Origin: a virus
DNA: 38,805 nucleotides
Strand: one strand, 5' to 3'
Virus genome (UHGV): UHGV-0123934
Shown one piece after another: positions 9,113 to 35,940 of this stretch; position 1 is the stretch's first letter; each line of letters opens with the position of its first letter. The position numbers and the translations under genes are program-made. The notes beneath the pieces were generated by a model. That model ran no database searches and was not told where the DNA came from. It worked only from the letters and a program-made list of their open reading frames with translations.

Positions 9113-9143
9113 TGCGGACAATTTGTGAGAGCTTAAATGATAT

Positions 9144-17249: not shown

Positions 17250-17602
17250 TGGATTTCAAGAAACATCTGATCGCGCTTTTGGAGCGTGAGATTCCAGAAT
17301 TGGCGGATAAGATTCAAGCCGGTGCGGTCGATGCCCGGACGCCTGCGCCTTTCGCCGCGTTCTCCGTACCGGAAGAGACGCCCGTAAGGACGCTACACGG
17401 CATCGTCGGCTATCGGACGATGTTCGAGGTAGCGGTCTATGACAGCAGGTTCTCCGGTGCGGAACGCCTCAAGCATCGGGTGATCGCCGCCTTGGAGGGT
17501 GCGGAGTTCGACGGCAAGCGCAGCCGCTTCGTCTCCTCGGCGGCGGAATACTATGCAGACTACGACGTGCACGGTGCGACGATGACATTCAGAATTGTTT
17601 AA
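17246..17602 (+). CDS. putative tail completion/terminator protein
   Basis: 118-aa ORF overlapping upstream stop (ATGA), last gene of the head-tail joining block; no motif. Confidence 0.4.
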   Translation: MMDFKKHLIALLEREIPELADKIQAGAVDARTPAPFAAFSVPEETPVRTLHGIVGYRTMFEVAVYDSRFSGAERLKHRVIAALEGAEFDGKRSRFVSSAAEYYADYDVHGATMTFRIV

Positions 17603-18242
17603 CCCAATCCGTAAAATCGAGTTTTATGAGTTGCCAGATTTTATTTTCAAGACAAACAGGGTCGGGATCACCATCCGCTCTCGTAAAATCGGTCAATCCC
17701 GCAAGGCATTCTTCGCGCGATGCTCCGTAGGGATATCGTGCTGCGTATAAAGCGAGCAGCTGCTCGATAGAATAGGCATTATGAAGAAGATGCAAATCCC
17801 AAAAGTCCTTTTTACGGCCGCCGCGGGCGATAACATCCATCTTCATCGCAACGATGTCGTCTACGGACGCCATACGGATCGTATCGTGCTGCTCTGCCGG
17901 GCGGATGAAGTCATCCGTATAGAACAGGTCGAGTTTTACGGACTTTTCCCGGTTCTGTCCGATGATATATGAGGCCCCGAAGCCGACGATTTCTCCGCAA
18001 TCACCCTGACAATAAGGAAACTCTTTGCGCAGAATATCCTGCAATTTATGGAAATCCAAAGATCTATACTCGGCATCGGTAAATAGATCTATATCGTCGG
18101 ACATACGATGTCCATAGCGCAAACTGAGCGAGGTGCCGCCGACAAGGCGGAACGGGGCGAATGCTTCGAGAGTCATCAGATGTTCGAGTGACGACCGCAG
18201 AATGGGTTTGACAGTATGGTATTGCAACGCTTTATGCTTCAT
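17589..18242 (-). CDS. nucleotidyltransferase, AbiEii/AbiGii toxin-like (DUF1814-like)
   Basis: N-terminal FRLVGGTSLSLRYGHRMSDDIDLF (GGT...S.DIDL polymerase-beta-like NTase signature); start overlaps upstream partner. Confidence 0.75.
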   Translation of the reverse strand: MKHKALQYHTVKPILRSSLEHLMTLEAFAPFRLVGGTSLSLRYGHRMSDDIDLFTDAEYRSLDFHKLQDILRKEFPYCQGDCGEIVGFGASYIIGQNREKSVKLDLFYTDDFIRPAEQHDTIRMASVDDIVAMKMDVIARGGRKKDFWDLHLLHNAYSIEQLLALYAARYPYGASREECLAGLTDFTRADGDPDPVCLENKIWQLIKLDFTDWVKQF

Positions 18243-20450: not shown

Positions 20451-21233
20451 ATGGCAAGATTGAAAACTCCGATTTCATACTATGGCGGCAAGCAGATGCT
20501 TTTGAAGCATATCCTGCCGCTGATTCCCGAACATACGCTCTACACGGAAGCCTTCTGCGGCGGCTGCGCCGTGCTGTTCGCCAAGCCGCCCGCGCAGTGC
20601 GAAGTCATCAACGACACGAACACCGAATTGGTGAACTTCTACCGCGTGGCGCAGACCCAGTATGCGGCACTCAAGGCGATGATCGACGCGACGCTCCACA
20701 GCCGCGAGATACACGCGCACGCACGGCATATCAACGAGCATCCGTCGTTCTTCACGCCCGTCGAGCGGGCTTGGGCTGTATGGGTCTGCACGAAGTTGGG
20801 CTTCGCCTCGATGATCGACGGAACGTTCGGCTACGACCGCAGCGGTACGACGACGCTGAAACTCCGCAATGCGAAAGAGGCCTTCACCGAGGAGTTGTGC
20901 GGACGCCTCGGCCGCGTTACGGTCGAGTGCGAGGACGGCATCGATGTCATCCGCCGCTACGACTGTCCCGAGGCGTTCCACTTCGTCGATCCGCCCTATG
21001 TCGGCAGCGACTGCGGACACTACAACGGTACGTTCGACGAGGAGGATTTTTCGAGGCTGCTCGACACGCTCGCAACGGTCGAAGGGAAGTTCATGCTCAC
21101 GATGTTTCCGCACGAGAAGATCGAACGCCTCGCCGCCCGGCACGGCTGGACGATCCATCGGCTCGACCGCACCATCACCGCCTCGAAAGTTTCCCGCCGC
21201 CGGCAGGAGGAGTGGATTACGACGAACTACTGA
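20451..21233 (+). CDS. dam: DNA adenine methyltransferase (Dam-like, alpha class)
   Basis: N-terminal ISYYGGKQMLLKHILPLIP...EAFCGGCAVLF and motif IV FVDPPY. Confidence 0.85.
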   Translation: MARLKTPISYYGGKQMLLKHILPLIPEHTLYTEAFCGGCAVLFAKPPAQCEVINDTNTELVNFYRVAQTQYAALKAMIDATLHSREIHAHARHINEHPSFFTPVERAWAVWVCTKLGFASMIDGTFGYDRSGTTTLKLRNAKEAFTEELCGRLGRVTVECEDGIDVIRRYDCPEAFHFVDPPYVGSDCGHYNGTFDEEDFSRLLDTLATVEGKFMLTMFPHEKIERLAARHGWTIHRLDRTITASKVSRRRQEEWITTNY

Positions 21234-21240
21234 TACCGAC

Positions 21241-22017
21241 GTGGGTACATTCGCTTACGATAACCCCGCTTACATCGCTTCGTGCTCGTTCGGCAAGGAT
21301 TCGATCGCTACGATCCTCCTTGCCCTCGAATATGGCGAGCCGCTCGATGCCGCTGTCTTTTCGGAGGTGATGTTCGACCATCGGCGCAATATCAGCGGCG
21401 AGATGCCCGAACACATCGAGTGGATCTATTCGACGGCGATTCCGCGTCTTGCCGCCTTGGGCGTACGGGTCGATGTCGTCCGTTCGGAGAAAGACTATCT
21501 TACGTTATTCCATACGGTCATAGGGAGCAGTACGCATAAGGGTATGCTGCGCGGCTGGCTCATCGGCGGCAAGTGCTGCGCCAATCGCGACCTCAAAATC
21601 CGGCCTATACATCGCTATTATGCCCGTTATCGAGAGCAAGGCATCGTGCAGTACGTCGGCATCGCGGCCGACGAACCGAGACGCCTCGCGCGGATGCAGG
21701 ACAAAGGGTATAACCGTAAAACGAGTCTGCTCGCCAAGTACGGGTACACCGAGGCGGACGCCCGACGCAAGTGCGAAGAATACGGTCTGCTGTCGCCTCT
21801 CTACCGCACCTCGCATCGGGGCGGTTGCTGGTTCTGCCCCAACTGTCGCATTCCGGTCTTCGCCGAACTGCGCCGCCGCCATCCTGAATTGTGGCGTGAA
21901 CTGCAACTGCTTTCGAAGGTCGGAAATAAGTCCTCCGAAGGTTTCAAATACGGGCTGACTTTCGAGGAGGTCGAGCGGCGGATGGATCTCTTCGAACACT
22001 CACCGACGCCATTCTAA
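21241..22017 (+). CDS. PP-loop ATPase, PAPS reductase/QueC-like family protein
   Basis: PP-loop SFGKDS near the N-terminus, C-terminal Cys cluster GGCWFCPNC; start uncertain (GTG 21241 is the first start after the dam stop). Confidence 0.65.
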   Translation: MGTFAYDNPAYIASCSFGKDSIATILLALEYGEPLDAAVFSEVMFDHRRNISGEMPEHIEWIYSTAIPRLAALGVRVDVVRSEKDYLTLFHTVIGSSTHKGMLRGWLIGGKCCANRDLKIRPIHRYYARYREQGIVQYVGIAADEPRRLARMQDKGYNRKTSLLAKYGYTEADARRKCEEYGLLSPLYRTSHRGGCWFCPNCRIPVFAELRRRHPELWRELQLLSKVGNKSSEGFKYGLTFEEVERRMDLFEHSPTPF

Positions 22018-22020
22018 ACA

Positions 22021-22105
22021 ACTGAAAATAAATACGATAATAGTCGCCGAATAACTTGCGTGTTCCGAATAACGATGTTATGTTTGTCATGCAATAAACA
22101 ACTAA
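22021..22105 (+). promoter_or_regulatory. Promoter/leader repeat copy 1 (-33 TTG 22056-22058, -7 TAtgTTTG 22079-22086)
   Basis: Conserved about 85-bp element also at 22497, 23311, 23957 and 24588; motif spacing 20 nt fits the Bacteroidota sigma promoter pattern. Confidence 0.6.
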
Positions 22106-22118
22106 AATAGAGCGAATT

Positions 22119-22422
22119 ATGAAAAAGACAGTCATCGTGAAAGGCGAGCGTCGCAAGGTAGAATTCGAGTATCGAGTAATCGATAAATTGGTTAGTTGCC
22201 AAAAAGCAAACGATGGGATAAGCAGGGGGATGGCTTCCGGTCGAAACCTATTACCACGAAGCCGTTGCCATTATCGACGGTGTAGAATATCCGAGCGTTC
22301 GACGCTGGCATACCAATGGCGGCAGGTATTCGGAACAGTTCTTTTACAACGGACATTTCTATGATTCGTATAAGAAAATGATCGAGCGCATTCTCGAATC
22401 GGCAGACGAAAGTAACTCTTGA
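22119..22422 (+). pseudogene. small gene apparently frameshifted at a G5 run (or a sequencing indel)
   Basis: Frame 0 ORF 22119..22364 loses protein-like character after the G5 run at 22225-22229; the +1 frame continues as a convincing sequence (WLPVETYYHEAVAIIDGVEYPSVRRWHTNGGRYSEQFFYNGHFYDSYKKMIERILESADESNS) to a stop at 22420-22422. Confidence 0.45.
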
Positions 22423-22444
22423 ACCTCGATGGAAGCAGATGGAA

Positions 22445-22475
22445 AAACAGGCTCCGTACGGAGCCTGTTTCGATC
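22445..22475 (+). terminator. putative intrinsic terminator
   Basis: Perfect 10-bp stem aacaggctcc/ggagcctgtt with gtac loop, followed by tttcg. Confidence 0.5.
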
Positions 22476-22496
22476 TTTCGCTGTAAGCGTAAATAA

Positions 22497-22580
22497 CTGA
22501 AAATAAATATGATAATAGTTACCGGATAACTTGTGTGTTCCGAATAACGATGTTATGTTTGCAGTACGATAAACAACTGA
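22497..22580 (+). promoter_or_regulatory. Promoter/leader repeat copy 2 (-7 TAtgTTTG 22554-22561)
   Basis: Near-identical to copy 1. Confidence 0.6.
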
Positions 22581-22606
22581 ATAATAGACGATTAAAACAC
22601 CCGAAC

Positions 22607-23029
22607 ATGACAAGTGCACAGGCAAAACAGATCGCATCGAACTATATGCGGCAGCAGAGCGATTATGTATTTTCGGCGGTAACGGTTAAAAGCCTCGCTC
22701 CGGCGAACGGACCAGTCAAGGTGTGGCTCACCACCGAAGACGACTACGGGGACGAACTGATCGTCGAGGTCGAGATGGACCCGCAGTCGAATGAGATCCG
22801 CTGGAAGAAGATCTGCAACACGGGACGCCTATCCGAATATCTGAAGCCGGCTACTCGGATCGATAAACTTTCGGCGGGGCAGCGCTTCCGGCTGCAAGGC
22901 GACTGCGTGGTTTACGAGTTCGTGGACAATGTAAAGGACCGCAGCAATATTCCCTATATCATCCGACGGGCAGACCGATCCGGTTGCGTATCGAGAGTCG
23001 GATGGCAGGAAGTTTTTCCTATCGAGTAA
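22607..23029 (+). CDS. hypothetical small protein
   Basis: ATG 22607 downstream of promoter copy 2 (ORF track start 22535 lies inside the promoter repeat). Confidence 0.5.
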   Translation: MTSAQAKQIASNYMRQQSDYVFSAVTVKSLAPANGPVKVWLTTEDDYGDELIVEVEMDPQSNEIRWKKICNTGRLSEYLKPATRIDKLSAGQRFRLQGDCVVYEFVDNVKDRSNIPYIIRRADRSGCVSRVGWQEVFPIE

Positions 23030-23081
23030 CCGATAACCGCGCACCTTGCCGAAAGGCAGGTGCGCATAAAACGATACGACG

Positions 23082-23312
23082 ATGAAACTCCGCCGAACGA
23101 AAACCGGAACTTACACGATTGCTGGTATTACCGCAACTCAATATCGCACCCTTGCGGCAGTGCTTATGACCGCCGATGAGCGTTGCTTCGACGAACAGGA
23201 CGAGGACGGCAACTATTACAGCAACGACGATTTCGTCTGCTCGCTCGATGGCGATGAACGGGTGGCTTTGCGACAGGTGTGCGACGCACTTCGGCAACGT
23301 GTAAAATATTGA
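23082..23312 (+). CDS. hypothetical small acidic protein
   Basis: 76-aa ORF; preceded by hairpin with GAAA loop (23037-23065). Confidence 0.4.
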   Translation: MKLRRTKTGTYTIAGITATQYRTLAAVLMTADERCFDEQDEDGNYYSNDDFVCSLDGDERVALRQVCDALRQRVKY

Positions 23313-23390
23313 AAATAAATGCGATAATAATTAATGGAAAACTTGCGTGTCCCGAATTATGATGCCATCTTTGCAGTGCAATAAACAACT
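23311..23390 (+). promoter_or_regulatory. Promoter/leader repeat copy 3 (degenerate -7)
   Basis: Shares aacttgcgtgt and gcagtgcaataaacaact cores with the other copies. Confidence 0.5.
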
Positions 23391-23405
23391 AATATAGAGC
23401 GCATT

Positions 23406-23738
23406 ATGAGTACAAGAGCAAGAATCGGCGTAAGACTTCCCGACGGAAAAATCAAAAGCATTCATATATGGCGGGACGGACATCCCGATACGTTGGGCGA
23501 AACATTGTCAGCGCACTACAACACATTGGAAACGGCAATGGCACTGGTCGAACGAGGCAACATAATCGATGTGGAAGCACGTCTCGAAGAGTGCCGGTTC
23601 GAGAAATCGAATGAACGGTACGATACCGAGCCTCGGATTTATGAATCGGTTGCCGCCTATGAACGAGAAATCGAGGAGGATATATGTTACAAATATCTCT
23701 ATCGGGACGGCAAGTGGGAATACCGGGCGGTCGATTAG
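23406..23738 (+). CDS. hypothetical small protein
   Basis: 110-aa ORF with ATG start downstream of promoter copy 3. Confidence 0.5.
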   Translation: MSTRARIGVRLPDGKIKSIHIWRDGHPDTLGETLSAHYNTLETAMALVERGNIIDVEARLEECRFEKSNERYDTEPRIYESVAAYEREIEEDICYKYLYRDGKWEYRAVD

Positions 23739-23772
23739 TAACCGACTTCCGATCGTAAGGAGCGAATGCTCC

Positions 23773-23802
23773 GAGCCTCCGACGGGAGGCTTTCTCTCGT
23801 TT
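23773..23802 (+). terminator. putative intrinsic terminator
   Basis: Stem agcctcc/ggaggct, loop gacg, then T-rich ttctctcgttt. Confidence 0.5.
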
Positions 23803-23821
23803 CATTCAGTTGTTTATTGCG

Positions 23822-23856
23822 ACCGGAGCCGTGCATCGTGTACGACTCCGGTTTTC
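23822..23856 (+). terminator. putative intrinsic terminator preceded by inverted leader motif cagttgtttattgc (23807-23820)
   Basis: Stem accggag/ctccggt followed by tttt; paralogous to the element at 25080-25133. Confidence 0.5.
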
Positions 23857-23956
23857 GTTCAAAGGCGGGACATTGTTTCTGCAACGGATCTTCGGCAGCA
23901 TGTATATTTACCATATGGGACATGCTTGATAAATAGTTGATATTCTTTGAATTAAG

Positions 23957-24014
23957 TTGCCGATAAACTTGCGCGTTCCGAATAATGATGTTATGTTTGC
24001 AGTGCAATAAACAA
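23957..24014 (+). promoter_or_regulatory. Promoter/leader repeat copy 4 (-7 TAtgTTTG 23992-23999)
   Basis: Core gccgataaacttgcgcgttccgaataatgatgttatgtttgcagtgcaataaacaa. Confidence 0.6.
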
Positions 24015-24044
24015 TTGAACTACAATCTATTAAACGACTCGATT

Positions 24045-24263
24045 ATGAATACTGCGAATCGAAAAAGAACGGAAATCGACGCCGAACTCGACCGGTTGGA
24101 GGTCGAATTCGAGAAGAACCGCAAGGAGATGCAACGCCTTGCCGACGAAAACAGACGTGCCGGCAACCGCTACGGCGAATTATCGAATGCGAATCACGAC
24201 ATCAACAACCGGATCCTCACATTGCTCGCTGAGCGTTGGGAATCGGAAGAGACGGCTGATTGA
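24045..24263 (+). CDS. hypothetical small coiled-coil protein
   Basis: ATG 24045 downstream of promoter copy 4. Confidence 0.45.
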   Translation: MNTANRKRTEIDAELDRLEVEFEKNRKEMQRLADENRRAGNRYGELSNANHDINNRILTLLAERWESEETAD

Positions 24264-24338
24264 CGAAACGAGAGACGACCCCGCCGAGAAATCTTCCTCG
24301 GCGGGGTTAAGACCCGAAACCGGAAAACACATAAAGAG

Positions 24339-24536
24339 ATGAAAACGATGAATGCAAATGCAACGGTAGGCGACAAGATTCGCATTATCCATCTTCGCGA
24401 CGAGGACAGCCGTTACGACGGCAAGGTGGGAACGATCGAGTTCATCGACTCGCTCGGGCAATTGCACGGTACATGGGGCGGGTTGGCAGTCATTCCCGAA
24501 GTCGATCGGTTCGTAATTATCGAGAAAGCGGAATAA
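24339..24536 (+). CDS. hypothetical small protein
   Basis: 65-aa ORF; preceded by 10-bp perfect stem hairpin 24279-24306 (no U tract). Confidence 0.4.
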   Translation: MKTMNANATVGDKIRIIHLRDEDSRYDGKVGTIEFIDSLGQLHGTWGGLAVIPEVDRFVIIEKAE

Positions 24537-24587
24537 TCGCCTGCAACGATAATGCTCGGTTCCGTCATCTTTTCTGAACGTCTAATT

Positions 24588-24672
24588 TACTGAAAATAAA
24601 TACGATAATAGCCGCCGAACAACTTGCATGTTCCGAATAACGATGTTATGTTTGCAGTACGATAAACAACTA
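24588..24672 (+). promoter_or_regulatory. Promoter/leader repeat copy 5 (-7 TAtgTTTG 24647-24654)
   Basis: Near-identical to copies 1 and 2. Confidence 0.6.
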
Positions 24673-24687
24673 AAAAAAGAGCGAATT

Positions 24688-24975
24688 ATGAGAACGAACA
24701 TCGACCGGTTTTTAGAGAGATTCCCGAAGAATGCCACGGATTGGGCGCAGGCGACGGACGAGGTGCACGATATGGCTCGCAAGGCTCGCGAATTGTTGGA
24801 AGAGTACGAAGGCGTAATCGTCGAACCGGTAAATTTCCAGGCTATCGAGACCCCGGCCGAGTGGAATACCGAAGGTCGCGAGTTCATCCTGACGAATTTC
24901 GATCGCATGGCGGATAGAACCAAAGAGCGCTTCTACGACTACTTCCGCGAGTGGTTCGAAGGCGAAGAGGAATAG
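24688..24975 (+). CDS. hypothetical small acidic protein
   Basis: ATG 24688 downstream of promoter copy 5. Confidence 0.5.
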   Translation: MRTNIDRFLERFPKNATDWAQATDEVHDMARKARELLEEYEGVIVEPVNFQAIETPAEWNTEGREFILTNFDRMADRTKERFYDYFREWFEGEEE

Positions 24976-25094
24976 ACCGACGCACGGATGCTCCTCGTTC
25001 AAGCTGCGGGGAGCATCCGTCCTAACCCCGGAGCAGGGTTGCACACGTCTCTTTCGATAGGAAATCTATCGTGCTCCATCAGTTGTTTATTGCA

Positions 25095-25133
25095 GCCGGA
25101 GCCGCATTATGTGCGGCTCCGGTATTTTATTTT
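25095..25133 (+). terminator. intrinsic terminator preceded by inverted leader motif cagttgtttattgca (25080-25094)
   Basis: Perfect 11-bp stem ccggagccgca/tgcggctccgg, 5-nt loop, then attttatttt. Confidence 0.7.
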
Positions 25134-25175
25134 GTATGTAAATAATGATTAAATTTGTAACGAAAACAGAATACG

Positions 25176-26216
25176 ATGAAAGCCTATACCTATATCGAAC
25201 ACGGGCGGTTCGAGCTGCTCGACAAGCCGGAACCCGCCTTGCAGGACCCTCGCGACGCCATCGTGCGCGTGACGCTCGCGAGCATTTGTACCAGCGACCT
25301 GCATATCAAGCACGGCAGCGTACCCCGCGCCATTGAGGGCATCACCGTCGGCCACGAGATGGTCGGCATCGTCGAGGAGGTCGGGTCGGAGGTGCGCAGC
25401 GTAAAGGTCGGCGACCGCGTGACGGTCAACGTCGAGACCTTCTGCGGCGAATGCTTCTTCTGCAAGCGCGGCTACGTGAACAACTGCACCGATCCCGACG
25501 GAGGCTGGGCACTTGGCTGCCGCATCGACGGCGGGCAGGCGGAGTATGTCCGCGTGCCGCATGCCGATCAAGGGTTGAACCGCATTCCCGATACGGTGAG
25601 CGACGAGCAGGCATTGTTCGTGGGCGATATTCTGGCTACAGGTTATTGGGCGGCGAAGATTTCGGAGATTGCGCCCGACGACACGGTCCTGATTATCGGT
25701 GCCGGACCGACGGGTATCTGCACGCTGCTTTGCGCAAGATTGAAGCGCCCGAAGCGAATCATCGTCTGCGAAAAATCGCCCGAACGGCGGCGATTCGTGC
25801 GGGAACACTATCCCGAGGTGCTGACGGTCGCACCGGAGGAGTGTCGCGAGGCGGTTTATGCGAACAGCGACCGTGGTGGCGCCGACGTCGTGCTGGAGGT
25901 GGCCGGTGCGGAGGATACGTTTCGCCTGGCGTGGGAGTGCGCCCGCTCCAATGCGACGGTTGTTATTGTTGCGCTCTACGACCGGCCGCAGATGTTGCCG
26001 CTGCCCGACATGTACGGCAAGAACCTCACCTTCAAGACGGGCGGCGTAGATGGCTGCGACTGCGCCGAGATACTCCGGCTGATCGAGGCGGGCGAGATTG
26101 ACACCACGCCGCTCATCACGCACTGTTATCCGCTCGGCCGCATCGCCGAGGCATACGACCTCTTCGAAAACCGCCGCGACGGAGCGATCAAGGTGGCTAT
26201 CGATTGTACCGAATAG
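25176..26216 (+). CDS. zinc-dependent alcohol dehydrogenase family protein (MDR superfamily)
   Basis: Catalytic-zinc signature GHEMVGIVEEVG, structural-zinc Cys cluster CGECFFCKRGYVNNC, Rossmann motif LIIGAGPTG. Confidence 0.85.
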   Translation: MKAYTYIEHGRFELLDKPEPALQDPRDAIVRVTLASICTSDLHIKHGSVPRAIEGITVGHEMVGIVEEVGSEVRSVKVGDRVTVNVETFCGECFFCKRGYVNNCTDPDGGWALGCRIDGGQAEYVRVPHADQGLNRIPDTVSDEQALFVGDILATGYWAAKISEIAPDDTVLIIGAGPTGICTLLCARLKRPKRIIVCEKSPERRRFVREHYPEVLTVAPEECREAVYANSDRGGADVVLEVAGAEDTFRLAWECARSNATVVIVALYDRPQMLPLPDMYGKNLTFKTGGVDGCDCAEILRLIEAGEIDTTPLITHCYPLGRIAEAYDLFENRRDGAIKVAIDCTE

Positions 26217-26241
26217 AGGTATGTATCCGCGCGATAATATT

Positions 26242-26943
26242 TCACGTCAGCGTCCACCCCTTGTCTGTTGCGATCGCTTTTTGGATAGCATTCAGTTTCG
26301 CGAGGTTCTTCGCTCCGATATTGCAGGTCTTGCCATTGCCGGTATCGGATAGCGCGTTCAACAGGAATACCAAACTCTCTACCATGAGTTTCGGACAGCC
26401 GTTCACGGCGATGTCTACATTGACGGGGCCGTCGATGATTACCGTTTCGAGTGCGGAGCAGGAGACGAACGTCGTGTCGATCTTCGATGTTACCTTGCTG
26501 AAGTCAAGTCTTCCGCCGATTTTACGCAGGCTCTTGCAGCCGTGGAACATCTCCGAAGCGGAAGTAATGCGCGAGGTGTCCAGTCCGCCGATCTCCTGCA
26601 AGTTCGTACAACCGTAGAAAGCATACATCATATTCGCGACGTTCGAGGTGTCGAGCGTCGGCACACGCTCCAGCGCCGTACAGCCGTAGCACATCTGATA
26701 CATCGAATCGAACGACGCTGTGTCGAGTGCCGGAAATACCGACATCGTCGTATTGCCCCGAAAGAGCTGGTAGCCGTTGCGGATCTGATTCATTCCGCTG
26801 GTGCTGTCCACCAATGCGACTTTATCGACGAGCGATACCAACGTCTCTTCGTCGGTTATCGCCACGCCTTTGTCGCGTAGCGCCCCGGCAAGGTGCTGCC
26901 GCAGCGCATCGAGCCGCAAAACGAGTGAAGTAAAGTCTGCCAT
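26242..26943 (-). CDS. BspA-type leucine-rich repeat protein (putative tail-associated adhesin/receptor-binding component)
   Basis: Tandem repeats of the F.GC..L..I...DTS....M..F.GC type (MCYGCTALERVPTLDTSNVANMMYAFYGCTNLQEIGGLDTSRITSASEMFHGCKSLRKIG). Confidence 0.65.
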   Translation of the reverse strand: MADFTSLVLRLDALRQHLAGALRDKGVAITDEETLVSLVDKVALVDSTSGMNQIRNGYQLFRGNTTMSVFPALDTASFDSMYQMCYGCTALERVPTLDTSNVANMMYAFYGCTNLQEIGGLDTSRITSASEMFHGCKSLRKIGGRLDFSKVTSKIDTTFVSCSALETVIIDGPVNVDIAVNGCPKLMVESLVFLLNALSDTGNGKTCNIGAKNLAKLNAIQKAIATDKGWTLT

Positions 26944-26946
26944 ACG

Positions 26947-27180
26947 CTATCCGATAATATGGTTCAGTGCCTCCTCGATGCCCGTCAGTCCGAGCGAAGC
27001 GGTCATCGCATCGACCAACGTCGCATAAGTTACGGCAGCACCCGTACCGTTGCGGTCGATTTCGATAAGGTCGGTGGCTGCCAAAGTCGTCACCTTCGGG
27101 AGTTGAGAGAGCGTGATCGTATCGGTATCCGATCCGGTTGCAAGCCGTCCTATAATCGCCCCTGTTTGTTCTGTTGCCAT
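26947..27180 (-). CDS. hypothetical small protein (tail fibre module)
   Basis: 77-aa ORF tightly packed between the tail fibre and LRR genes. Confidence 0.4.
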   Translation of the reverse strand: MATEQTGAIIGRLATGSDTDTITLSQLPKVTTLAATDLIEIDRNGTGAAVTYATLVDAMTASLGLTGIEEALNHIIG

Positions 27181-27184
27181 AATT

Positions 27185-29323
27185 CTATTCTTCGTAAATC
27201 TTGAATTCGGACATCATCTGATAAGTTACGTGCCACATGCATTTGGCGGAGGAATAGGGCGACGGCACAGCCAACAGTTGCAGTAGTCCTCCGTAGGTCT
27301 CGATGCGAGGAACCGGCAGATAGCCCATTCCGTAGGCATCTTTCTTCAGTGTCGTCACGATGCCCGACTGCGTGTCGTCCGCCGCAAGTACCAGACTGGG
27401 CGACGAACGGGTGCGGATCGGACAGTCGTAGAGGTTCACCACGCTGCCGATATATTCGGCCGATGTCGGCAGGTTAAGCCAAATGAGGTAAGTGCCGAAA
27501 TCCGCGCCGTTGGCGATCAGGTTGAAGTTGCGGTTCAATGTATACTTGCGGGTCGAGGCGTTGTAGTCCGTGCCTTCGTCCGTGAAGTATTTGAACTGCA
27601 CCTTCGAATATCCGCTGAAGATACCGCTCGCCATTTCGACATGTCCGTCTTCGTAGATGCGTGTGGCAGCCGTCGCAGCATTCTCGATACCGTCCGCGCC
27701 GGCGAAGAACATCAACTTGCCGTGCTTCGACGTCGGAGCGCCTTTCAATGCGCAGCCAGCCATACCCGCTACGACCTTCTTGTCCGTATCATCCTTTACG
27801 CCGACGAACCCTGACAGCACCACACCGCTTCCGGCATCGATCTCCGTCGAGATATCCTGAAAGTTCTCGCGCAGATACTCCAGATCGCTGTTGTCGCTTT
27901 TCGCCGCTTCGTCCAAGAGCGCTCCGATCGTCCGGCGGGCCGTGTAGTAAGCCTCGATGTCGGCGAAATCATCCTCGACCGGAATGAACTCCGGTTCCGG
28001 CTGCGTATATTTCCCGATGGCGGCGACGGCCCGCTGATAGGCATCTTCGTAGGGTGTCCACTCATCGGCGAGCAACCGAACGGCGCGCCGCTTGCCGTGC
28101 ACCATAAGTATTTTCCCGTTCGCGCTGCGATAACGAAACACAGAGAGCAGCCGCAGGGCATTGGCGCGGAGTTGTTCGTATTCGGTTCGGATATCCTGCA
28201 AGCGCTCTTTCAGGAACGACTTCTCCACAGGAGAGACGTACTCATCGGAGTTGATACGACCGAGCGTCTCCAACGTCGAGGAGATCGTCTGCATCAACTC
28301 GTCGAAATCCGTTCCGGCATCGGGCTTCGCGGGATCGATGCGACCGAAGCGTAAGATCCCGTTGCGGAAACTTACGCCATAACCCGTCGTACGGTTGAAG
28401 AGCTGCATATCGCCCGTCGCGGAGTCGAACCACGAGTCGCCCGACCTGTCCGAGAGGAAGCCCGAGAGGTAGATGTTTTTCAAATAGGCCGAATAACCGG
28501 TCATATCCAGACCGTGCGCCTTGAGATTCGAAAGGTCGCCGAACTGCGCTGCGATATTCTCCGTGCGGATCGTCCAGTCGTCCATACCCGTGAGAAACCG
28601 CAGGTAGGTGCGGGTTTCGTAGCGGGAGGTCCGGCGCTCCTTGTCGGTCGTATTGCCGAATGCCACGAACTGCATCGCCGCCTGCGGGTGATAGGGATAA
28701 CCCTCGCGCAATTCGTACCGCCATTCGGCGTAGGTATCGCGGTCGAGGCACTCGGTAAGCCGGAAGTAGCAGGTTGTGAAGCCGGCATAGGTGCGGTTGC
28801 CGAACGAGTCGTCCGAATCGACGGTATTGCCGCTCGATGCGTCCATTGCCGAGTTCAGAAAGATGCCGATACAGAGATCGTTCTCGCGTAGGGTGCTTGT
28901 TTCGCCCTCCTCCAACTTGACGACCAGCATCCGGTTCTCCGGCGAGACGAGCTCGACGATGCCGCCGCCCGGAGCGGACCACCGATCGCCGACGACCGTT
29001 TCGATGCGGTTGTAGCGATATTCGGGGACCTCCAGGAACTCCTCCAAATGAAGCCGCCGCAGGTACGTATCGCCCATAACCGATAAGTCGCCCGAGATCG
29101 TACCGCCTTTCTTGTCCAACTTCTTGTCGAGTTCGCCCGACAGTCCCGTGATGTCGGAGACGGCGTGCGTATGCTTCTTCGGAGCCATTACGCTTTTGAT
29201 CTCCTTACCGGAAACCTTCATCGATGCGGCGGCTGTCGGGACGTCGACGATGAACTCGAATGCGTCGAACTCCGCCAATTGTCCCGAAGCGCTCGCGAGG
29301 TCTTTGATGCGAACTTCGTCCAT
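27185..29323 (-). CDS. phage tail fibre / receptor-binding protein
   Basis: ATG at 29323 (ORF track extends to 29503); N-terminal KKHTHAVSDITGLSGELDKKLDKKGGTISGDLSV-type fibre segment. Confidence 0.55.
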   Translation of the reverse strand: MDEVRIKDLASASGQLAEFDAFEFIVDVPTAAASMKVSGKEIKSVMAPKKHTHAVSDITGLSGELDKKLDKKGGTISGDLSVMGDTYLRRLHLEEFLEVPEYRYNRIETVVGDRWSAPGGGIVELVSPENRMLVVKLEEGETSTLRENDLCIGIFLNSAMDASSGNTVDSDDSFGNRTYAGFTTCYFRLTECLDRDTYAEWRYELREGYPYHPQAAMQFVAFGNTTDKERRTSRYETRTYLRFLTGMDDWTIRTENIAAQFGDLSNLKAHGLDMTGYSAYLKNIYLSGFLSDRSGDSWFDSATGDMQLFNRTTGYGVSFRNGILRFGRIDPAKPDAGTDFDELMQTISSTLETLGRINSDEYVSPVEKSFLKERLQDIRTEYEQLRANALRLLSVFRYRSANGKILMVHGKRRAVRLLADEWTPYEDAYQRAVAAIGKYTQPEPEFIPVEDDFADIEAYYTARRTIGALLDEAAKSDNSDLEYLRENFQDISTEIDAGSGVVLSGFVGVKDDTDKKVVAGMAGCALKGAPTSKHGKLMFFAGADGIENAATAATRIYEDGHVEMASGIFSGYSKVQFKYFTDEGTDYNASTRKYTLNRNFNLIANGADFGTYLIWLNLPTSAEYIGSVVNLYDCPIRTRSSPSLVLAADDTQSGIVTTLKKDAYGMGYLPVPRIETYGGLLQLLAVPSPYSSAKCMWHVTYQMMSEFKIYEE

Positions 29324-29671
29324 AACGACGTGAAAATAACGCTTCGCCGAACCTTTTTCGGGATACAAAGTCCCTAATTCCGAAGAATGCCTTATCTTTG
29401 TAATTGCATTCCGCTCTGTCGGGATGCGACATATTATTCGACTTAACCTCGGAAAAAACTGGTAATTTTTTAGCAAATGGTTAAGCACTCCGTATCCTCG
29501 CATCGAACGGCTCCTGCCGTAAGGTTCGGGATATGGTCATATCCCTGCTTTACGGCGTGGGCTATACGTGCTTATCATTTGCAGGTATACCAGTACCTTT
29601 CCGAGATAGGCGGCAGTAGGCCCACGTTCTTTTTTGTCCGGCGGACAGACGCGATCCTATCTGCCATTTCG

Positions 29672-30181
29672 ATGATTATGAAAGCAACGAATCGAATACC
29701 GGATCGCCGTGTCGTGCGACCGTTGACCGCACGGATATTGCGGTCGTTTCTGGTGGCGTCGGAACGCTCGCATCACCATATTTATGCGCTGTGGGAACAC
29801 GCATCGATCCTGTCATTTGCGATAAAGAATGCAGACGGCGAATATTTGTCTTTGCGAGAGTTTTTCAGCAAGGGCGATGCGGTTGCGCCCGACGATCCGC
29901 TCATCGTCATCTTCCACGAAATGCATATCGAAACCGTGGAAGAATTGACCGCTGAATATATCGAACGCATTTATGAATCGTTTCTCTACCATCATTGCGA
30001 GATGGAATTGCGCCGCAACGCCCCGCTCCGTTTGACTCCGGAATCGATACGACGATACGGCTTGACCGAGGCGGATGCTGTCCTTGTCGGCGAGCATCTC
30101 GAAGTCCTGAACGAGATGATCCGTCGGAAACTCCAGCGGCAATACGACGAACTCAAAGCCTTGGATTGCATTCGGAAGTAG
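29672..30181 (+). CDS. hypothetical protein
   Basis: ATG 29672 inside ORF 29477..30181; GC-rich, divergent from the tail fibre gene, upstream of the SIR2-NTPase gene. Confidence 0.4.
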   Translation: MIMKATNRIPDRRVVRPLTARILRSFLVASERSHHHIYALWEHASILSFAIKNADGEYLSLREFFSKGDAVAPDDPLIVIFHEMHIETVEELTAEYIERIYESFLYHHCEMELRRNAPLRLTPESIRRYGLTEADAVLVGEHLEVLNEMIRRKLQRQYDELKALDCIRK

Positions 30182-30255
30182 TATTTTAAGTACTATCATA
30201 AGTTTTATGGAGTAGATTCTCATTCTTTTTTGCTGGAAATTGCGAAATAAAGAAG

Positions 30256-30279
30256 ATTTTGCTATTTTTATAGCAAAAT
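30256..30279 (+). promoter_or_regulatory. perfect 10-bp inverted repeat attttgctat-tttt-atagcaaaat, operator-like, 8 nt upstream of the SIR2-NTPase start
   Basis: Read directly from the sequence. Confidence 0.5.
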
Positions 30280-30287
30280 AATATAAT

Positions 30288-32780
30288 ATGGACGCTAAGA
30301 TTGAAAAACTTAAATTCAGCCTGCGACACAATAATCCTAATTTATTTGTTGGTGCAGGGTTTTCGTTAGGTGCTACTCTGCAAAATAATGCACCGATTCC
30401 AAGTGGAGCGACATTAAAAGATGGCATTATTACAAATATCCTTAAATACCCGAAATCCAGCCCGGAATATAATGAACTTTCCATATTACCATTGTGTAAA
30501 GTTTGTACTATTACAGTCGCAGAAAAAGGTCGTGAAGAACTTTATTCTTATTTACAGTCCATATATCAAAATGTGCAACCAGCCGAATTCCATAAATCAT
30601 ATATTAAATATCCTTGGCATAACATATATTCGACCAATATCGATGATGTAATTGAAAATGCTTGTGCAATTGAGAATGTGCCTATTATTATATATAATGA
30701 GCCACATAACCCTAAACCAAAACAAGATAAAAGTCTTGTATTATATAAATTGCATGGCTGTGTTAATAACATGGACGCAGGCGTTATTTTTGATGAGGAA
30801 GAATATATCGATTCTATTTTAGATAGAACTGACCATAGATTTGGTAATTTATCTATTGAATTTCAAACAAAAGATTTTGTTTTCGTTGGATCTGATTTTG
30901 ATGATTTTAACATTAATTATTATTTAAGTTTATACTCAGCAAATGGTACAGATTCAGGCCGAGGAAATTTGTTTTTTATTAATCCAAAGCCATCATATGC
31001 TTTTAAGAGTAGGATAAAGCAGGTTGGAGGAATTTTGATAGAATTCAATGCGAAGCAATTTGCAGAATTGATTGATTCCATAAGATTTGATTTAGAGACA
31101 ATAAACGAAACCAAACTGTCGTATGATGGTTATGTGCGTGTCAAACAATTAAAAGACAATTTGTCGTCAAATCATTACGATTCGGATTTATATCTTGGAG
31201 CGCGTCCGAAATGGACAGATATTTTTTACGATTGGGATATTATTTTATCGCCCGCAATTAAGACATTCATTTCTACATTGGATGATTTTGAAATCGATGA
31301 TAAGAATACTTTGGTTTATGCTATACACGGGCGAGGATATTCCGGGAAGTCTGTACTAATAAAAAGACTTGCTAACATTCTCATTGATGCAAATTATGAA
31401 ATCATTTCATTTGAAGGAAAAAATTTCAACTCCAATAGATTCTTACATTATATAAATAAATCACAATATCACAAGTTTGCATTAATTGTTGATGATGCCA
31501 GTTATTTATATAGCCAGTTTGAATATTTGTGCAAGAAAGTATCTGGAAAAATTAAACTGTGTATTATATCGGCTTCAAGAATATTTCTTCATAACAAGCG
31601 AAAATATAGTCTTGTAAATATAAATAGCGTAGAATACGAGATGACAATAACTATAGATGAAGCTATTGCATCTGATATTATTAACAAATTAAACCAAAGA
31701 GGCTATTTAGGACGTATTCTTCGTTCCTGCCCAGATAAAGATTCTCAAATTCAATTCGCAAAAAATAATACGGATATAGCATCTGCTATTTTTGCTATTA
31801 CATATGGGAAAGATTTCCAACGCCGTTTTGCTGCAGATGTCAATAATATTATCAAAGATGGCAATTATAGAGATCCGCTAATCAAATTGGCAATTTTTCA
31901 GAAAATGCAATTAGCATATTGCCCTCGAGAGTTATTCGTTAGATTATATGGAAAGCGAATTATAGGGATATTGCAACGTATGGAGAATATTTTAAGAGAT
32001 GCGCATTCTCCACGCCTTGAGCTAAAAAATGATTTTATTGGAGATATTATCCTTAAAAATTCAACATCTGTAGAAATAATAAATAGTTTGAAAGAGCTAT
32101 TGGTATATATTTCATCAATGGTTGAAAACACCTCCAATTCTTACTGGAATGAGATTCAGTCTATATTAATGAGAGATAAGTTAGTTCGTGATGTCTTAAA
32201 TATAAAACCTTCTGATTTTAAGCAAATGCTATATGAAATAAGAGAATATTATTATGACAATTACAACTATTGGCTTCAATTAGGAATTGCGGAGCAATTG
32301 GCAGGAGATTATGATAAGGCGTTAATTCATTTTAGCCAAGCACAAATATACGGCCCCAAATCCTATATGGTAAAAAACGCAATTGGTCGCAATTATATAT
32401 TTCAGGCAATTAAAGAATTGGATAATGATATTGCTATAAAATTATTTAATGAAGGGAAATGTATTTTATTTGAATTAATTAAAAATAGAGAAGAATATCA
32501 AGCGAAAGCATATTCAACGCATACATATATTGCTGGATTGATAAGGTTTTATAAACGAAAGCACAATTTGAAAATTTCCTCAAAAGAAGCTAAAGAAGCA
32601 CAGTCTCTTATCAATACAATACGCATAAAATATAAAGGAGATCCAATATTTGAAAATTTAAACTCGACTTTCACTAAATTTATTTTACAACATTCTTCGA
32701 ATATGACATTAAATTTACAAGAGTTACAAATGTCATATAGAAATTGTGTAGATGAAGTGGAATTCATAGATATGGATTAG
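30288..32780 (+). CDS. SIR2-like domain protein fused to P-loop NTPase and helical repeat domain (SIR2-STAND / Avs5-like candidate antiphage protein)
   Basis: SIR2-family motifs LFVGAGFSLGA, IYSTNIDDVIE, LYKLHGCV, FVFVGSDFDDF; Walker A IHGRGYSGKS and Walker B FALIVDDA; C-terminal about 450 aa helical/TPR-like; strongly AT-rich. Confidence 0.75.
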   Translation: MDAKIEKLKFSLRHNNPNLFVGAGFSLGATLQNNAPIPSGATLKDGIITNILKYPKSSPEYNELSILPLCKVCTITVAEKGREELYSYLQSIYQNVQPAEFHKSYIKYPWHNIYSTNIDDVIENACAIENVPIIIYNEPHNPKPKQDKSLVLYKLHGCVNNMDAGVIFDEEEYIDSILDRTDHRFGNLSIEFQTKDFVFVGSDFDDFNINYYLSLYSANGTDSGRGNLFFINPKPSYAFKSRIKQVGGILIEFNAKQFAELIDSIRFDLETINETKLSYDGYVRVKQLKDNLSSNHYDSDLYLGARPKWTDIFYDWDIILSPAIKTFISTLDDFEIDDKNTLVYAIHGRGYSGKSVLIKRLANILIDANYEIISFEGKNFNSNRFLHYINKSQYHKFALIVDDASYLYSQFEYLCKKVSGKIKLCIISASRIFLHNKRKYSLVNINSVEYEMTITIDEAIASDIINKLNQRGYLGRILRSCPDKDSQIQFAKNNTDIASAIFAITYGKDFQRRFAADVNNIIKDGNYRDPLIKLAIFQKMQLAYCPRELFVRLYGKRIIGILQRMENILRDAHSPRLELKNDFIGDIILKNSTSVEIINSLKELLVYISSMVENTSNSYWNEIQSILMRDKLVRDVLNIKPSDFKQMLYEIREYYYDNYNYWLQLGIAEQLAGDYDKALIHFSQAQIYGPKSYMVKNAIGRNYIFQAIKELDNDIAIKLFNEGKCILFELIKNREEYQAKAYSTHTYIAGLIRFYKRKHNLKISSKEAKEAQSLINTIRIKYKGDPIFENLNSTFTKFILQHSSNMTLNLQELQMSYRNCVDEVEFIDMD

Positions 32781-35137
32781 AACCCACCCAACACCTCCGA
32801 CTTGAAGTTCTCTTTTCCGAGAACATACACCAAATCCCGACCCTTGGCAGTCAATTGACCGCCGAGGGTTATTCGTAGGTTCTGCGTGCTGCCGCTCATC
32901 GGAAGCATCGCCTGCAACTTCGACAGCGGCGCGATGACTTCGGGATCCGTACCGGCATTGGGATTGTCGCCGACCATCGCATAGGTAGGACCGTATGCCA
33001 GACCGCCGTTGGCCAATGCCGGCACGCTCTTTTCCGCATTCTTGTTGATGAGCGCCGTCATCACGGCTGCCGCCGCGACCATCGCAGCACCGATGGCGAT
33101 CGCCGCCCATGGGTTCGCGAGGACGGATTTCAACGCCGACTTGAAGGCGATGATCATCACGCCGAACTCGATGAGTTGCGAGCCGATATTTTTCAGAAAA
33201 GAGGCGAACTGCGTCAGGATCGCTTTCATCAGCCCTCCGAATCCCAAATCGCCGGCAATGATCTGCCCGATAGCCTCCGCCGCTGCGACGATGCTGTCGG
33301 CCATAAACTTCGACACCTGCTGATCGAAGCGCGTCATCACCTCCGCAATCGTGGCGTGGACATGCTCCAATGCCGCCGAGAACGACCAGCCTTTCGCCGT
33401 CAGTGCCGTCGTGTAGTTCTCGACGGTCGAGACCGTATCGGCGACGTGCTCCTGCAAGTATGCGCTGTTGTCGTCCGCCCAGCCGTATAACCCTTCGCGT
33501 ACCGCACCGAATATCGCCTGCATCTGCTGCGCGTATTGCGATGTTACGGGTTTCAGATCGCCCATTTTGAGTTTCGGCGCCGGCAGTTCCAACTCGAAGC
33601 CCTCGGGCAGAATGCCGTTCATCTTGACGACGGGTTTCAGGTCTTCGGGCTTGATATTCTTGATCCGCTCCAACTCTTTTTGCAGCTTCTCGATCTCGGC
33701 GTTCGCCGCAGCGATATCTTCGACAGTCGATTCGGGCAGTAGTTTCTTCTTTTCGAGGGCCTCGATCCGCGCCTGCAATTTACCGATGATGCCCGTGCTT
33801 TGTTCCGTCTGCGCGTTGGTTCCGGCGATGGACTTCATCAGCTCCTCGGTCTGCTTGCGAGCCTCGTCCGTTACCTTGTCCAGTTCGGCCTGCGCCTCGG
33901 CCGCCTTCTTCTCCGTTTCGCGTTTCTTTTCGATGGCTGCCGTCAGCAGGTCGTACTCCTTGCGCAAGGGTGCGAGTTTCGATTCGTCGGGTACTTTCTG
34001 CAAGGTAAAACCGGCGACCAATCCCCCGAAATTCGGAACCATCCGCGTCTTGGTCGTCGTGGCGATGATCTCTTTCTGCTCGGCGATATTTTCCTGCAAC
34101 TTGCGTTCGAGCTCGTCGAGCGATTCGGTCTCTGCCATCTCGTCGATCATCTTCTGCTTTTGGATGCGGGCATAGGCAAACGCCGCACCGAGCGCGAGGA
34201 TCGCCGCCATAATCAACCCGACAGGCGAGAGCAATGCCGTAAATCCTGCCGCCAGCATCGGCAGCACCTTGATCACGGCGCCGATTCCGAGCGAAAGGGG
34301 ACCGACCGCTGCGACCAGCCCCGCCACGACGACGATCGTCTGCATCATCGCCGGCGACATCGATTGCAACATCTGCACGACCGTCGAGAGCGCACCCGCC
34401 ACTTTCATCGCGAAAGGCATGATGGCCGCACCGATCTGTTCCAAGAAGTCGCCCCATGCGTTCTTGAGCTGCTGCACGGCTCCGAGTCCCGTTCGTGCGG
34501 CGGCTTCGGCCTGCCCGCCGAACTTGCGCTCCAACTCGTCGAGGATCATCGCCTGCGCTCTGGCTATGTCGCCCGTCTCGGCGAGTTTCTTGATCACCTC
34601 CGCCTGCTCCTTGGAGAAGGCTATGCCGGCACGCGACAGCGACGAGAGCTTCGTCGCGGGATCGGAGAGCGCCTTGCCCAACTGCAACGACGCCGCACCC
34701 AAATCCATCTCCAACGCCGTGGCGAGGTCCAATGCCAACGCCTGCGTGCGCTTGAAGTTCTCGCCTGTGATATTGGTAAAAGCCAACAGGCGGGCGGTGG
34801 ATTTGTCGAGAATCGTCTCGTCGCCGAAAAGCGTTTTGCTCTGCAACTCCGAAGCGTAGTCGGCCAGCTGCCGGAAGTTGTAACCGACAGCCCGATTCGT
34901 AACCTTGAGCGCCTGCTGCACCTTCGCCTCGGCTTTGGCCTGCACGTCGGCCAAGTGCAGCGACACGCCGCCCAATGCCGCAAGGGGCGCGGTGAGCTTC
35001 AGCGAGAGCGACTTGCCGACGGAGGTCAACTTCTTTTCGAGCGAGCCGAGACCTTTCTCGACCTGCTGCGCCTTCTGCTGGAACTCATACGAGTCGGCTC
35101 CGATCTTGATAAGCAGATCGGCGATTCTTCGGGACAT
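32777..35137 (-). CDS. phage tail tape measure protein (TP901-family-like)
   Basis: 786-aa protein with coiled-coil segments, central hydrophobic helices (IVVVAGLVAAVGPLSLGIGAV, GLIMAAILALGAAFAYA) and a TP901-type N-terminal core. Confidence 0.85.
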   Translation of the reverse strand: MSRRIADLLIKIGADSYEFQQKAQQVEKGLGSLEKKLTSVGKSLSLKLTAPLAALGGVSLHLADVQAKAEAKVQQALKVTNRAVGYNFRQLADYASELQSKTLFGDETILDKSTARLLAFTNITGENFKRTQALALDLATALEMDLGAASLQLGKALSDPATKLSSLSRAGIAFSKEQAEVIKKLAETGDIARAQAMILDELERKFGGQAEAAARTGLGAVQQLKNAWGDFLEQIGAAIMPFAMKVAGALSTVVQMLQSMSPAMMQTIVVVAGLVAAVGPLSLGIGAVIKVLPMLAAGFTALLSPVGLIMAAILALGAAFAYARIQKQKMIDEMAETESLDELERKLQENIAEQKEIIATTTKTRMVPNFGGLVAGFTLQKVPDESKLAPLRKEYDLLTAAIEKKRETEKKAAEAQAELDKVTDEARKQTEELMKSIAGTNAQTEQSTGIIGKLQARIEALEKKKLLPESTVEDIAAANAEIEKLQKELERIKNIKPEDLKPVVKMNGILPEGFELELPAPKLKMGDLKPVTSQYAQQMQAIFGAVREGLYGWADDNSAYLQEHVADTVSTVENYTTALTAKGWSFSAALEHVHATIAEVMTRFDQQVSKFMADSIVAAAEAIGQIIAGDLGFGGLMKAILTQFASFLKNIGSQLIEFGVMIIAFKSALKSVLANPWAAIAIGAAMVAAAAVMTALINKNAEKSVPALANGGLAYGPTYAMVGDNPNAGTDPEVIAPLSKLQAMLPMSGSTQNLRITLGGQLTAKGRDLVYVLGKENFKSEVLGGF

Positions 35138-35143
35138 AGCGGT

Positions 35144-35551: not shown

Positions 35552-35555
35552 TGCT

Positions 35556-35930: not shown

Positions 35931-35940
35931 AGTATTGCAC

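Follow-up and report, generated by a model that had tools for sequence, protein, structure and literature searches.

Inverted copies of a promoter leader abut hairpins in a shuffled cassette array of an Alistipes prophage

The stretch of DNA analyzed here (the window) is the virus genome UHGV-0123934, 38,805 nt long, with coordinates given 5' to 3' on the given strand, and judged from its sequence it is an integrated, temperate, siphovirus-like prophage of Alistipes. It encodes TerL, a portal, a prohead protease, an HK97 gp10-like protein and a tail tube, along with DNA methyltransferases and a PAPS-reductase-like protein. Within it lies an array of seven small open reading frames (ORFs; genes 1 to 7) behind five repeated promoter elements (P1 to P5), and the subject of this report is a short motif in the leaders of these elements which recurs in inverted orientation against two hairpins, h1 and h2, at the ends of cassettes. 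Coordinates of the individual features are collected in Table 1.

Repeat search and alignment revealed P1 to P5 as a five-member family of direct repeats, each 104 nt long and 62%–85% identical to the reference copy. Each repeat contains a -33 TTG and a -7 box TATGTTTGC (TAnnTTTGY) at conserved spacing, as in the -33/-7 promoter consensus of the Bacteroidota (PMC12632263), and on these sequence features the five elements are putative Bacteroidota-type promoters for the host primary sigma factor. As the leader motif starts 5–6 nt after the -7 box, it would make up approximately the first 14 transcribed nt. The starts of P1, P3 and P5 coincide with or span the preceding gene's stop codon, and a hairpin is found directly upstream of P2 and P4 only, that of P4 being h1. 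Family matches of the seven small ORFs were limited to phrog_1987 (gene 4) and phrog_3782 and phrog_2431 (gene 6), all function-unknown, plus DUF4314 (gene 6).

A search for TGCAATAAACAACT with up to two mismatches returned seven matches in 38.8 kb where 0.23 were expected, a number which none of 100 dinucleotide-preserving shuffles reached. All seven copies lie within 22090-25094, and at this threshold there were none in the rest of the window. Five are on the plus strand, starting at 22090, 22565, 23377, 24003 and 24658, all inside the 104-nt direct repeats, and two are on the minus strand (23808-23821 and 25081-25094), each abutting a GC-rich hairpin. A preliminary description of this DNA had placed the reverse complement of the leader core at two sites, each directly followed by a terminator hairpin and the two hairpins paralogous. 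The exact complement cagttgtttattgc is indeed present at 23807-23820 and 25080-25093, with base 25094 (a) prolonging the complement to TGCAAT; the hairpin follows at a spacing of 0–1 nt at both h1 and h2; and a 26-nt direct repeat, TCAGTTGTTTATTGCNNCCGGAGCCG, is common to both units (92% identity). The description needs a small correction in that h1 was missed by the terminator scan because its stem contains one mismatch in the window and its T tail TTTTCGTT is weak. The motif is real and non-random, as are its inverted copies and the hairpins.

The likeness extends beyond the core. When reverse complements of the flanks were aligned with the leaders, the similarity between the inverted copies (here called blocks) and the leaders spanned GCAAT to ACTGAATGA, or 17–18 nt, and the match to the P2-type leader of the related locus L012 was 21 of 23 positions allowing a 2-nt indel. 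The match is therefore not a short low-complexity A/T run, which had been named in advance as the refuting outcome, since homology reaches the flanks over 17–23 nt. No similarity was found between the blocks and the promoter side of the elements, where the homology ends abruptly. By alignment, the block shares homology over about 23–27 nt with the leader between about +1 and about +25, but none with the promoter. Together with the P4 leader, the h1 block makes up a 16-nt inverted repeat whose two copies are 183 nt apart.

The array was compared with about 35 independent related contigs, of which the close relatives are about 92%–98% identical, and a profile of P1 to P5 searched across loci (designated L with a number) identified 60 loci with 1–8 promoter elements, always on one strand (60/60). 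Two of these loci (L014 and L005) lack window positions 23389-23956, comprising gene 4, its downstream hairpin T1 and h1, and carry instead a chimeric promoter with P3-type sequence through the -7 box, changing to P4-type sequence after AAACAA; as the junction falls in the shared TTTGCAGTGCAATAAACAA, the crossover occurred inside the leader motif. Gene 1 is missing from three loci via a P1/P2 crossover (L010, L015 and L031), L012 and L062 have a different combination of cassettes, and five loci contain 4–8 cassettes in other orders (L016, L024, L083, L088 and L105). These comparisons show gain, loss and reordering of cassettes through recombination inside the repeated promoter elements. At the last paired base of h2 (25122/25123) the relatives split into three right-hand continuations, namely the ADH gene (the window's own arrangement), a minus-strand ORF of 1.2 kb and then ADH, or the tail module directly, so that on sequence comparison h2 is a mosaic junction. 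The extra ORF of approximately 1.2 kb sits exactly between h2 and the ADH promoter (L011, 12290-13410; also in L014, L071 and L115).

Block and hairpin move together as a unit of approximately 60 nt which was found in three contexts: after gene 4 and T1 (window type), after gene 3 in L012 and L062 (a variant, h1v), and after gene 7 (h2). The h1v copy has diverged (AGTCGTTTATTGT / ccattcAGTCGTTTATTGTg) and is joined to a different hairpin; 2–3 of 21 block positions differ from h1, and neighboring genes are 79%–82% identical. The h1 unit lies approximately 100 nt upstream of the gene 5 promoter whatever its left neighbor. In L073, genes 1–4 are replaced by a low-GC minus-strand island, which reaches up to the left edge of an h1 unit that has decayed; because the adjacent spacer has also diverged (about 76%), this decay after loss of the upstream cassette is weak evidence for relaxed selection. 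By their sequence h1 and h2 are paralogues, the unit having been duplicated and relocated.

The motif search in related phages that had been proposed in the preliminary description gave a divided answer. The unit is conserved in a narrow clade of Alistipes prophages, but nine more distant relatives with 3–8 promoter elements and the same leader family (consensus RYRATAAAnnAYT) contained no reverse-complement copies of their own leaders, and outside this clade none of the 60 loci screened had a terminator whose upstream 16 nt are complementary to promoter-proximal sequence. As the distant relatives have the leader without the inverted copy, the leader is old and presumably functional itself, while the confinement of the unit to a narrow clade marks the inverted copy as a recent lineage-specific addition. 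A flank-anchored scan of metagenomes in which the motif was free to vary added 11 more copies, all with the motif invariant, and so contributed nothing to statistical power.

Short inverted repeats also recombine in this lineage at a smaller scale. The loops of h1, h2 and hairpin A, a stem-loop in the 3' untranslated region (UTR) of gene 7, each occur in both orientations among near-identical genomes, which on sequence evidence represents inversion between the stem arms. The flipped loops are located at 24998-25006 (hairpin A), 25107-25113 (h2) and 23833-23841 (h1), and the orientation pairs are TTCAAGCTG vs CAGCTTGAA, GCATCATGTGC vs GCACATGATGC and GTACACGATGTAC vs GTACATCGTGTAC.

The reading we favor, with a probability of roughly one half, is that the inverted block is an unselected by-product, an inverted copy of the array leader which became fused to a GC-rich hairpin and now serves as part of a terminator or boundary module of the cassettes. 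Footprints of duplication and inversion during cassette shuffling had been one of three readings offered beforehand, and it has gathered the most direct support of the three in the shuffled cassettes, the homology of block and leader, the mobile unit and its absence from distant relatives. A single small inversion, or an inverted duplication next to a palindrome, would have given rise to the unit, which would then have been duplicated and spread by cassette shuffling, its hairpins stopping or attenuating transcription at cassette ends. The inverted leader may have persisted because it is harmless, and it would be harmless because it carries no promoter. As a side effect, a transcript running from a leader through the unit would have complementary ends, with a predicted helix of 12–20 bp stacked on the hairpin. 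The divergence of h1v from h1 is compatible with neutrality, as is the conservation profile of the orthologues, in which the motif is invariant but, at the divergence sampled, most of the intergenic DNA around it is invariant too, leaving the motif no more conserved than its surroundings. Even if the unit is only a recombination by-product, it would be a handy marker of cassette boundaries and of short inverted repeats arising beside palindromes.

Several observations weigh against an unselected origin. In all three paralogues the homology boundary lies within about 2 nt of where transcription is expected to begin and is directly next to the base of the hairpin, which a random relic need not do, whereas a partner of the RNA 5' end or a copy of an operator would. 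Between h1 and h2 the proximal 14–16 nt are identical while the distal leader part and the loops have diverged, a contrast based on small numbers. Two changes in the L073 h2 block turn it into a perfect 14-nt complement of that locus's P5 leader (-23.4 vs -18.6 kcal/mol). In L078-type relatives h2 is followed by CAATCTCATT and has no T tract, yet hairpin and block are intact, and therefore intrinsic termination would not be the sole role of the unit there. The position of the boundary, the identical core of the paralogues and the compensatory-looking change in L073 keep functional readings alive.

The array resembles the promoter-early stem-loop (PeSL) cassettes of T4-like phages (Arbiol et al. 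2010, PMC2839356; Comeau et al. 2014, PMC4122927). As PeSLs are described in the portions of these two papers drawn on here, both systems have conserved composite intergenic elements of approximately 100 bp, in which a host-type promoter is combined with an AT-rich upstream part, as well as stem-loops at cassette borders, and elements flanking small ORFans in a plastic region, and in both the differences between close relatives are insertions, deletions or replacements whose crossovers lie within the elements. From the same portions, PeSLs belong to T4-like myoviruses with sigma-70 early promoters and have a stem-loop terminator in each element, whereas here the promoter is of the Bacteroidota -33/-7 type without a Shine-Dalgarno sequence, the carrier is an HK97-type temperate siphovirus-like prophage, and only two of five elements have a hairpin directly upstream. 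An inverted leader copy on the hairpins was not found described for PeSLs in what was consulted of this literature (PMC2839356, PMC4122927). We conclude from sequence comparison that the array works like PeSLs but stands outside the T4-like PeSL set. The cassettes also recall morons, small accessory prophage genes with their own promoter and terminator; morons, as far as they are treated in the parts of PMC2839356 drawn on, are not defined by flanking repeats, and here the flanks are repeated and act as crossover sites. PeSL shuffling in T4-like phages is known, and what is new is that a temperate phage of the Bacteroidota shows shuffling of the PeSL kind and has a terminator module that carries an inverted leader. 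Promoter-repeat-mediated shuffling as known from T4-like coliphages thus also operates in such a phage with the promoter type of the Bacteroidota themselves, which helps to annotate accessory and anti-defense gene arrays in gut viromes.

A selected RNA function, with the block either pairing to the extreme 5' terminus of a cassette mRNA or acting in trans, is possible although we regard it as rather unlikely. In cis, P3 or P2 leaders would pair with h1 and P5 or P4 leaders with h2, forming a panhandle stacked on the terminator hairpin that would shield the 5' end against 5'-end-dependent RNases or adjust translation; in trans, all five leaders could be bound by a processed 3'-UTR fragment composed of the seed AGUUGUUUAUUGC and the hairpin. 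Co-folding of leader and 3' region, proposed earlier as a check, did predict such a helix. For the transcripts 23375-23860 (P3-h1) and 24656-25135 (P5-h2) the minimum free energy and centroid folds both form a 5'-3' helix of 13 or 12 bp that ties the extreme 5' end to the nucleotides immediately preceding the terminator hairpin, and pair probabilities were 0.9–1.0 for P3-h1, P5-h2, P4-h2 and P2-h1. In L012 and L062 the predicted helix between h1v and the P2 leader is 20 bp long (-24.9 kcal/mol). The complementarity runs from about the transcription start to the hairpin base, the G/U-rich block wobble-pairs with every leader variant seen, and in a consensus fold of the gene 7 3' UTR alone the h2 block is single-stranded between conserved hairpins. 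The perfect complement in L073 fits an RNA function as well.

The long-range pairing of leaders with 3' ends suggested in the preliminary description is thus strongly predicted thermodynamically, but covariation remained at the level of shuffled pairs. Among 12 distinct cognate leader/block pairs, 97.6% of cells were paired compared with 96.8 ± 0.6% for shuffled partners (94 of 500 shuffles reached the observed value), and the two pairs changed on both sides were matched in 263 of 500; this test has no power, because with a G/U-rich block and leader polymorphisms of the A/G and C/U kind any combination wobble-pairs. Other points also argue against an RNA function. The changed h2 block of L012 (ATCGC) mismatches its own recombinant leader; T1, which is probably gene 4's own terminator to judge from its sequence, may stop P3 transcripts before the block; and the distant relatives have the same leaders without a partner, so the leader needs none. 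The transcription start, moreover, is placed by the -7 box only, and leader and block are put in one transcript by the positions of promoters and terminators.

It is doubtful that the unit is a portable 'mRNA-closing' terminator module or the source of a trans-pairing 3'-UTR fragment with a G/U-rich seed. Were it so, any cassette ending with the unit would give an mRNA whose 5' terminus is paired beside the terminator stem, because all promoters write the same first ~14 nt, and the prophage would gain modular control over the stability or translation of its shuffled accessory genes, in a phylum without Shine-Dalgarno-based initiation. A functional 5'-3' complementarity would then be a compact, transferable design for mRNA fate and a rare bacterial case of end-to-end mRNA closure. 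Precedents for an RNA function exist in the hbs mRNA of B. subtilis, where a 14-bp helix linking the 5' UTR to the 3' UTR protects against RNase Y (PMC5737220), and in icaR of S. aureus, where the 5' and 3' UTRs pair within one mRNA (reviewed in PMC7821165). As in these cases, the predicted helix of 12–14 bp (20 bp in L012/L062) would join a 5' leader to a 3' UTR in short mRNAs. The arrangement is unlike hbs and icaR in that the 5' partner would be the very first transcribed nucleotides and not a ribosome-binding region or RNase site, that the 3' partner abuts a terminator stem, that one module serves several cassettes, and that the pairing here is predicted.

That the block is a DNA-binding site is improbable. 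A prophage regulator would here recognize an asymmetric 13–14 bp sequence, RYRATAAACRAYT, as an operator at the promoters and, where the two cassettes end, as a looping partner or roadblock; palindromic half-sites for a regulator had been among the readings suggested beforehand. This asymmetric site covers about +1 to +14 at five promoters, distant relatives retain the leader core ATAAA..AYT, and an HTH-M78 protein is encoded at 9144-10250. Leaders and blocks also share the same R/Y polymorphisms (GCAAT, ACGAT, GCGAT and ACAAT; CAACT and CGACT), which is compatible with a common recognition code or with sequence exchange. The stoperators bound by repressors of Cluster A mycobacteriophages, which number more than 20 sites genome-wide in a single orientation relative to transcription (PMC9283540), are similar in being asymmetric sites of 13–14 bp at promoters and in short intergenic spaces at gene ends. 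They differ in that the present seven sites lie in 3 kb, five in sense and the two end sites antisense within one co-directional array, whereas stoperator function needs one orientation (PMC9283540). The motif is moreover confined to 22.0–25.1 kb, with only weak look-alikes elsewhere; these have two mismatches, lie at 2589 and 2735 without a hairpin or promoter element and are probably due to chance. Relatives with the same leaders lack the end copies.

Invertible promoters of the Bacteroidales (Mpi/Tsr systems) have short inverted repeats around a promoter-bearing segment of about 200 bp. The h1 block and P4 leader similarly flank a promoter segment as short inverted repeats, and it could be argued that they bound an invertible terminator-and-promoter segment, or that leader/block pairs flank invertible genes 4 and 7; an inverted junction would read, for example, GTTTATTGCACTGCAAACATAAC. 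We consider this very improbable. The segment of approximately 215 bp with its 16-nt repeats does have a geometry like that of these elements (invertons, mentioned in PMC12632263), a Xer-like tyrosine recombinase is encoded at 3644-4579, and hairpin loops flip in the lineage. However, none of 60 loci had a promoter element on the opposite strand, a count made on assembled contigs in which an orientation that is rare among reads could be missed, and every copy of the h1-P4 segment has the same orientation. The motif occurs five times in direct orientation, so a recombinase acting on it would delete genes; no recombinase gene is adjacent, and h2 has no downstream partner.

Chance similarity of an A-rich motif of only 14 nt is practically negligible in view of the counts and extended likeness given above, the 10 matches of the leader 12-mer TAAACAACTGAA in the window against 1.8 expected, and the retention of the arrangement in more than 30 independent contigs. 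The 12-mer is also present at 22015-22026 and 22490-22501, the upstream edges of P1 and P2, and the core promoters of both are therefore bracketed by direct repeats approximately 79 nt apart.

Table 1. Promoter elements, inverted-leader blocks and hairpins of the cassette array (window coordinates)
Feature	Position	Strand	Description
P1	22006-22109	+	-33 TTG, -7 box TATGTTTG, leader TGCAATAAACAACT at 22090-22103; drives ORFan gene 1 (22119-22364)
Hairpin	22445-22470		precedes P2
P2	22481-22584	+	leader TACGATAAACAACTGAAT at 22565-22582; drives genes 2 (22607-23029) and 3 (23082-23312)
P3	23293-23396	+	-7 variant CATCTTTG, leader TGCAATAAACAACT at 23377-23390; drives gene 4 (23406-23738)
T1	23773-23802	+	8-bp GC-rich hairpin and T-rich tail, just upstream of the h1 unit
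h1 block	23795-23821	+	inverted leader TCTCGTTTCATTCAGTTGTTTATTGCG; leader-complementary core 23805-23821
h1 hairpin	23822-23859	+	stem-loop 23822-23852, ACCGGAGCCGTGCA-TCG-TGTACGACTCCGGT; weak T tail TTTCGTT
P4	23919-24022	+	leader TGCAATAAACAATTGAA at 24003-24019; drives genes 5 (24045-24263) and 6 (24339-24536)
P5	24574-24677	+	leader TACGATAAACAACT at 24658-24671; drives gene 7 (24688-24975)
Hairpin A	24984-25020	+	gene 7 3' UTR; 14-bp stem without T tract; compensatory changes in three pairs
Small conserved hairpin	25055-25071	+	CGATAGG-AAA-TCTATCG, just upstream of the h2 block
h2 block	25075-25094	+	inverted leader TCCATCAGTTGTTTATTGCA
h2 hairpin	25095-25133	+	13-bp stem at 25095-25123 (9 G-C pairs), then ATTTTATTTT

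The placement of the array inside an integrated prophage is supported by longer sequences. The motif-plus-hairpin pattern is present in contigs of Alistipes metagenome-assembled genomes with lengths up to 282 kb and in metagenome contigs of up to 698 kb. In longer contigs carrying the exact tail protein, the sequence continues past the window end into ORF6N and a 437-aa integrase and then into host genes encoding an RsmD-like methyltransferase, the PIF1 helicase and MutS. In loci L128-L132 (locus coordinates 8017-10000) the ORF6N gene (196 aa) and the integrase gene, whose product has an Arm-DNA-bind_5 domain, adjoin the tail gene. The window and four IMG/VR contigs stop at gene boundaries and are therefore, by this comparison, trimmed provirus calls missing the integrase; a physical genome end 69 nt upstream of the tail gene, where the four IMG/VR contigs have an identical start, was rejected, as ORF6N and the integrase continue in the longer contigs. 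The exact tail protein of the window is indexed in 205 blocks of the assembly collection, and the element belongs to a very common human-gut Alistipes prophage. No tRNA genes were found in the window, and a reading of the two hairpin units as attL and attR was rejected, as they are 1.27 kb apart and both inside the prophage, with no tRNA genes. No Rfam family reached its gathering score in the window, and the only match at E up to 1, Esr41 RNA (21.8 bits vs a gathering score of 102, E = 0.54), was treated as chance. In INPHARED no relative of the cassette array was found, the two weak matches being to the ADH region.

To the right of h2, the 12.5-kb tail module (26240-38805, from a 954-aa protein to a DUF285 protein) is inverted in place relative to L078, L079 and L082. 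The orientation opposite to that of the window, with the tail module co-directional after the cassette array, was also found in the distant loci L016, L024, L083 and L105, while in the window type the ADH gene (25176-26216) stands at the left junction (breakpoint 25122/25123) and is convergent with the tail module. Long contigs from Alistipes show both arrangements. The ends of the module gave no inverted repeats, and for this reason its inversion is not attributed to h2 or the motif. Directly upstream of the first tail-module gene all relatives have a conserved element, GGGACAAAGTnTCCC followed approximately 25 nt on by TACCTTTAnnnnnAAAGG (L078, 9926-10000; L080, 1-69; also L083, L085 and L090), and in L078-type contigs its first half is on the opposite strand (GGGACTTTGT). 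The element may be a late promoter or regulatory site.

Elsewhere in the window, low-GC islands (32%–41% vs about 56%) are inserted among the structural genes. One (9144-10250) encodes the protein with a helix-turn-helix (HTH) and an M78 peptidase domain, other island genes lie at 13437-14582 (-), 17589-18242 (-) and 30288-32780 (+), and island products include an N6/N4 DNA methylase, an AbiEii toxin and a SIR2-STAND NTPase. The islands are probably defense cargo, and several are absent or replaced in relatives. Upstream of the terminase lies the gene for the Xer-like tyrosine recombinase (3644-4579, 311 aa, Phage_integrase with an N-terminal SAM-like domain), a protein other than the prophage integrase encoded past the end of the window. 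Just before the array, a Dam-type methyltransferase ORF (20451-21233) and the PAPS-reductase-like ORF (20869-22017) overlap by approximately 365 nt, and several relatives (L014, L015 and L078) have an insertion of 1–2 kb at window 21231-21256. Because of these insertions, and because the protein match begins only at residue 99 or about 130, the true start of the PAPS-reductase-like gene is probably internal.

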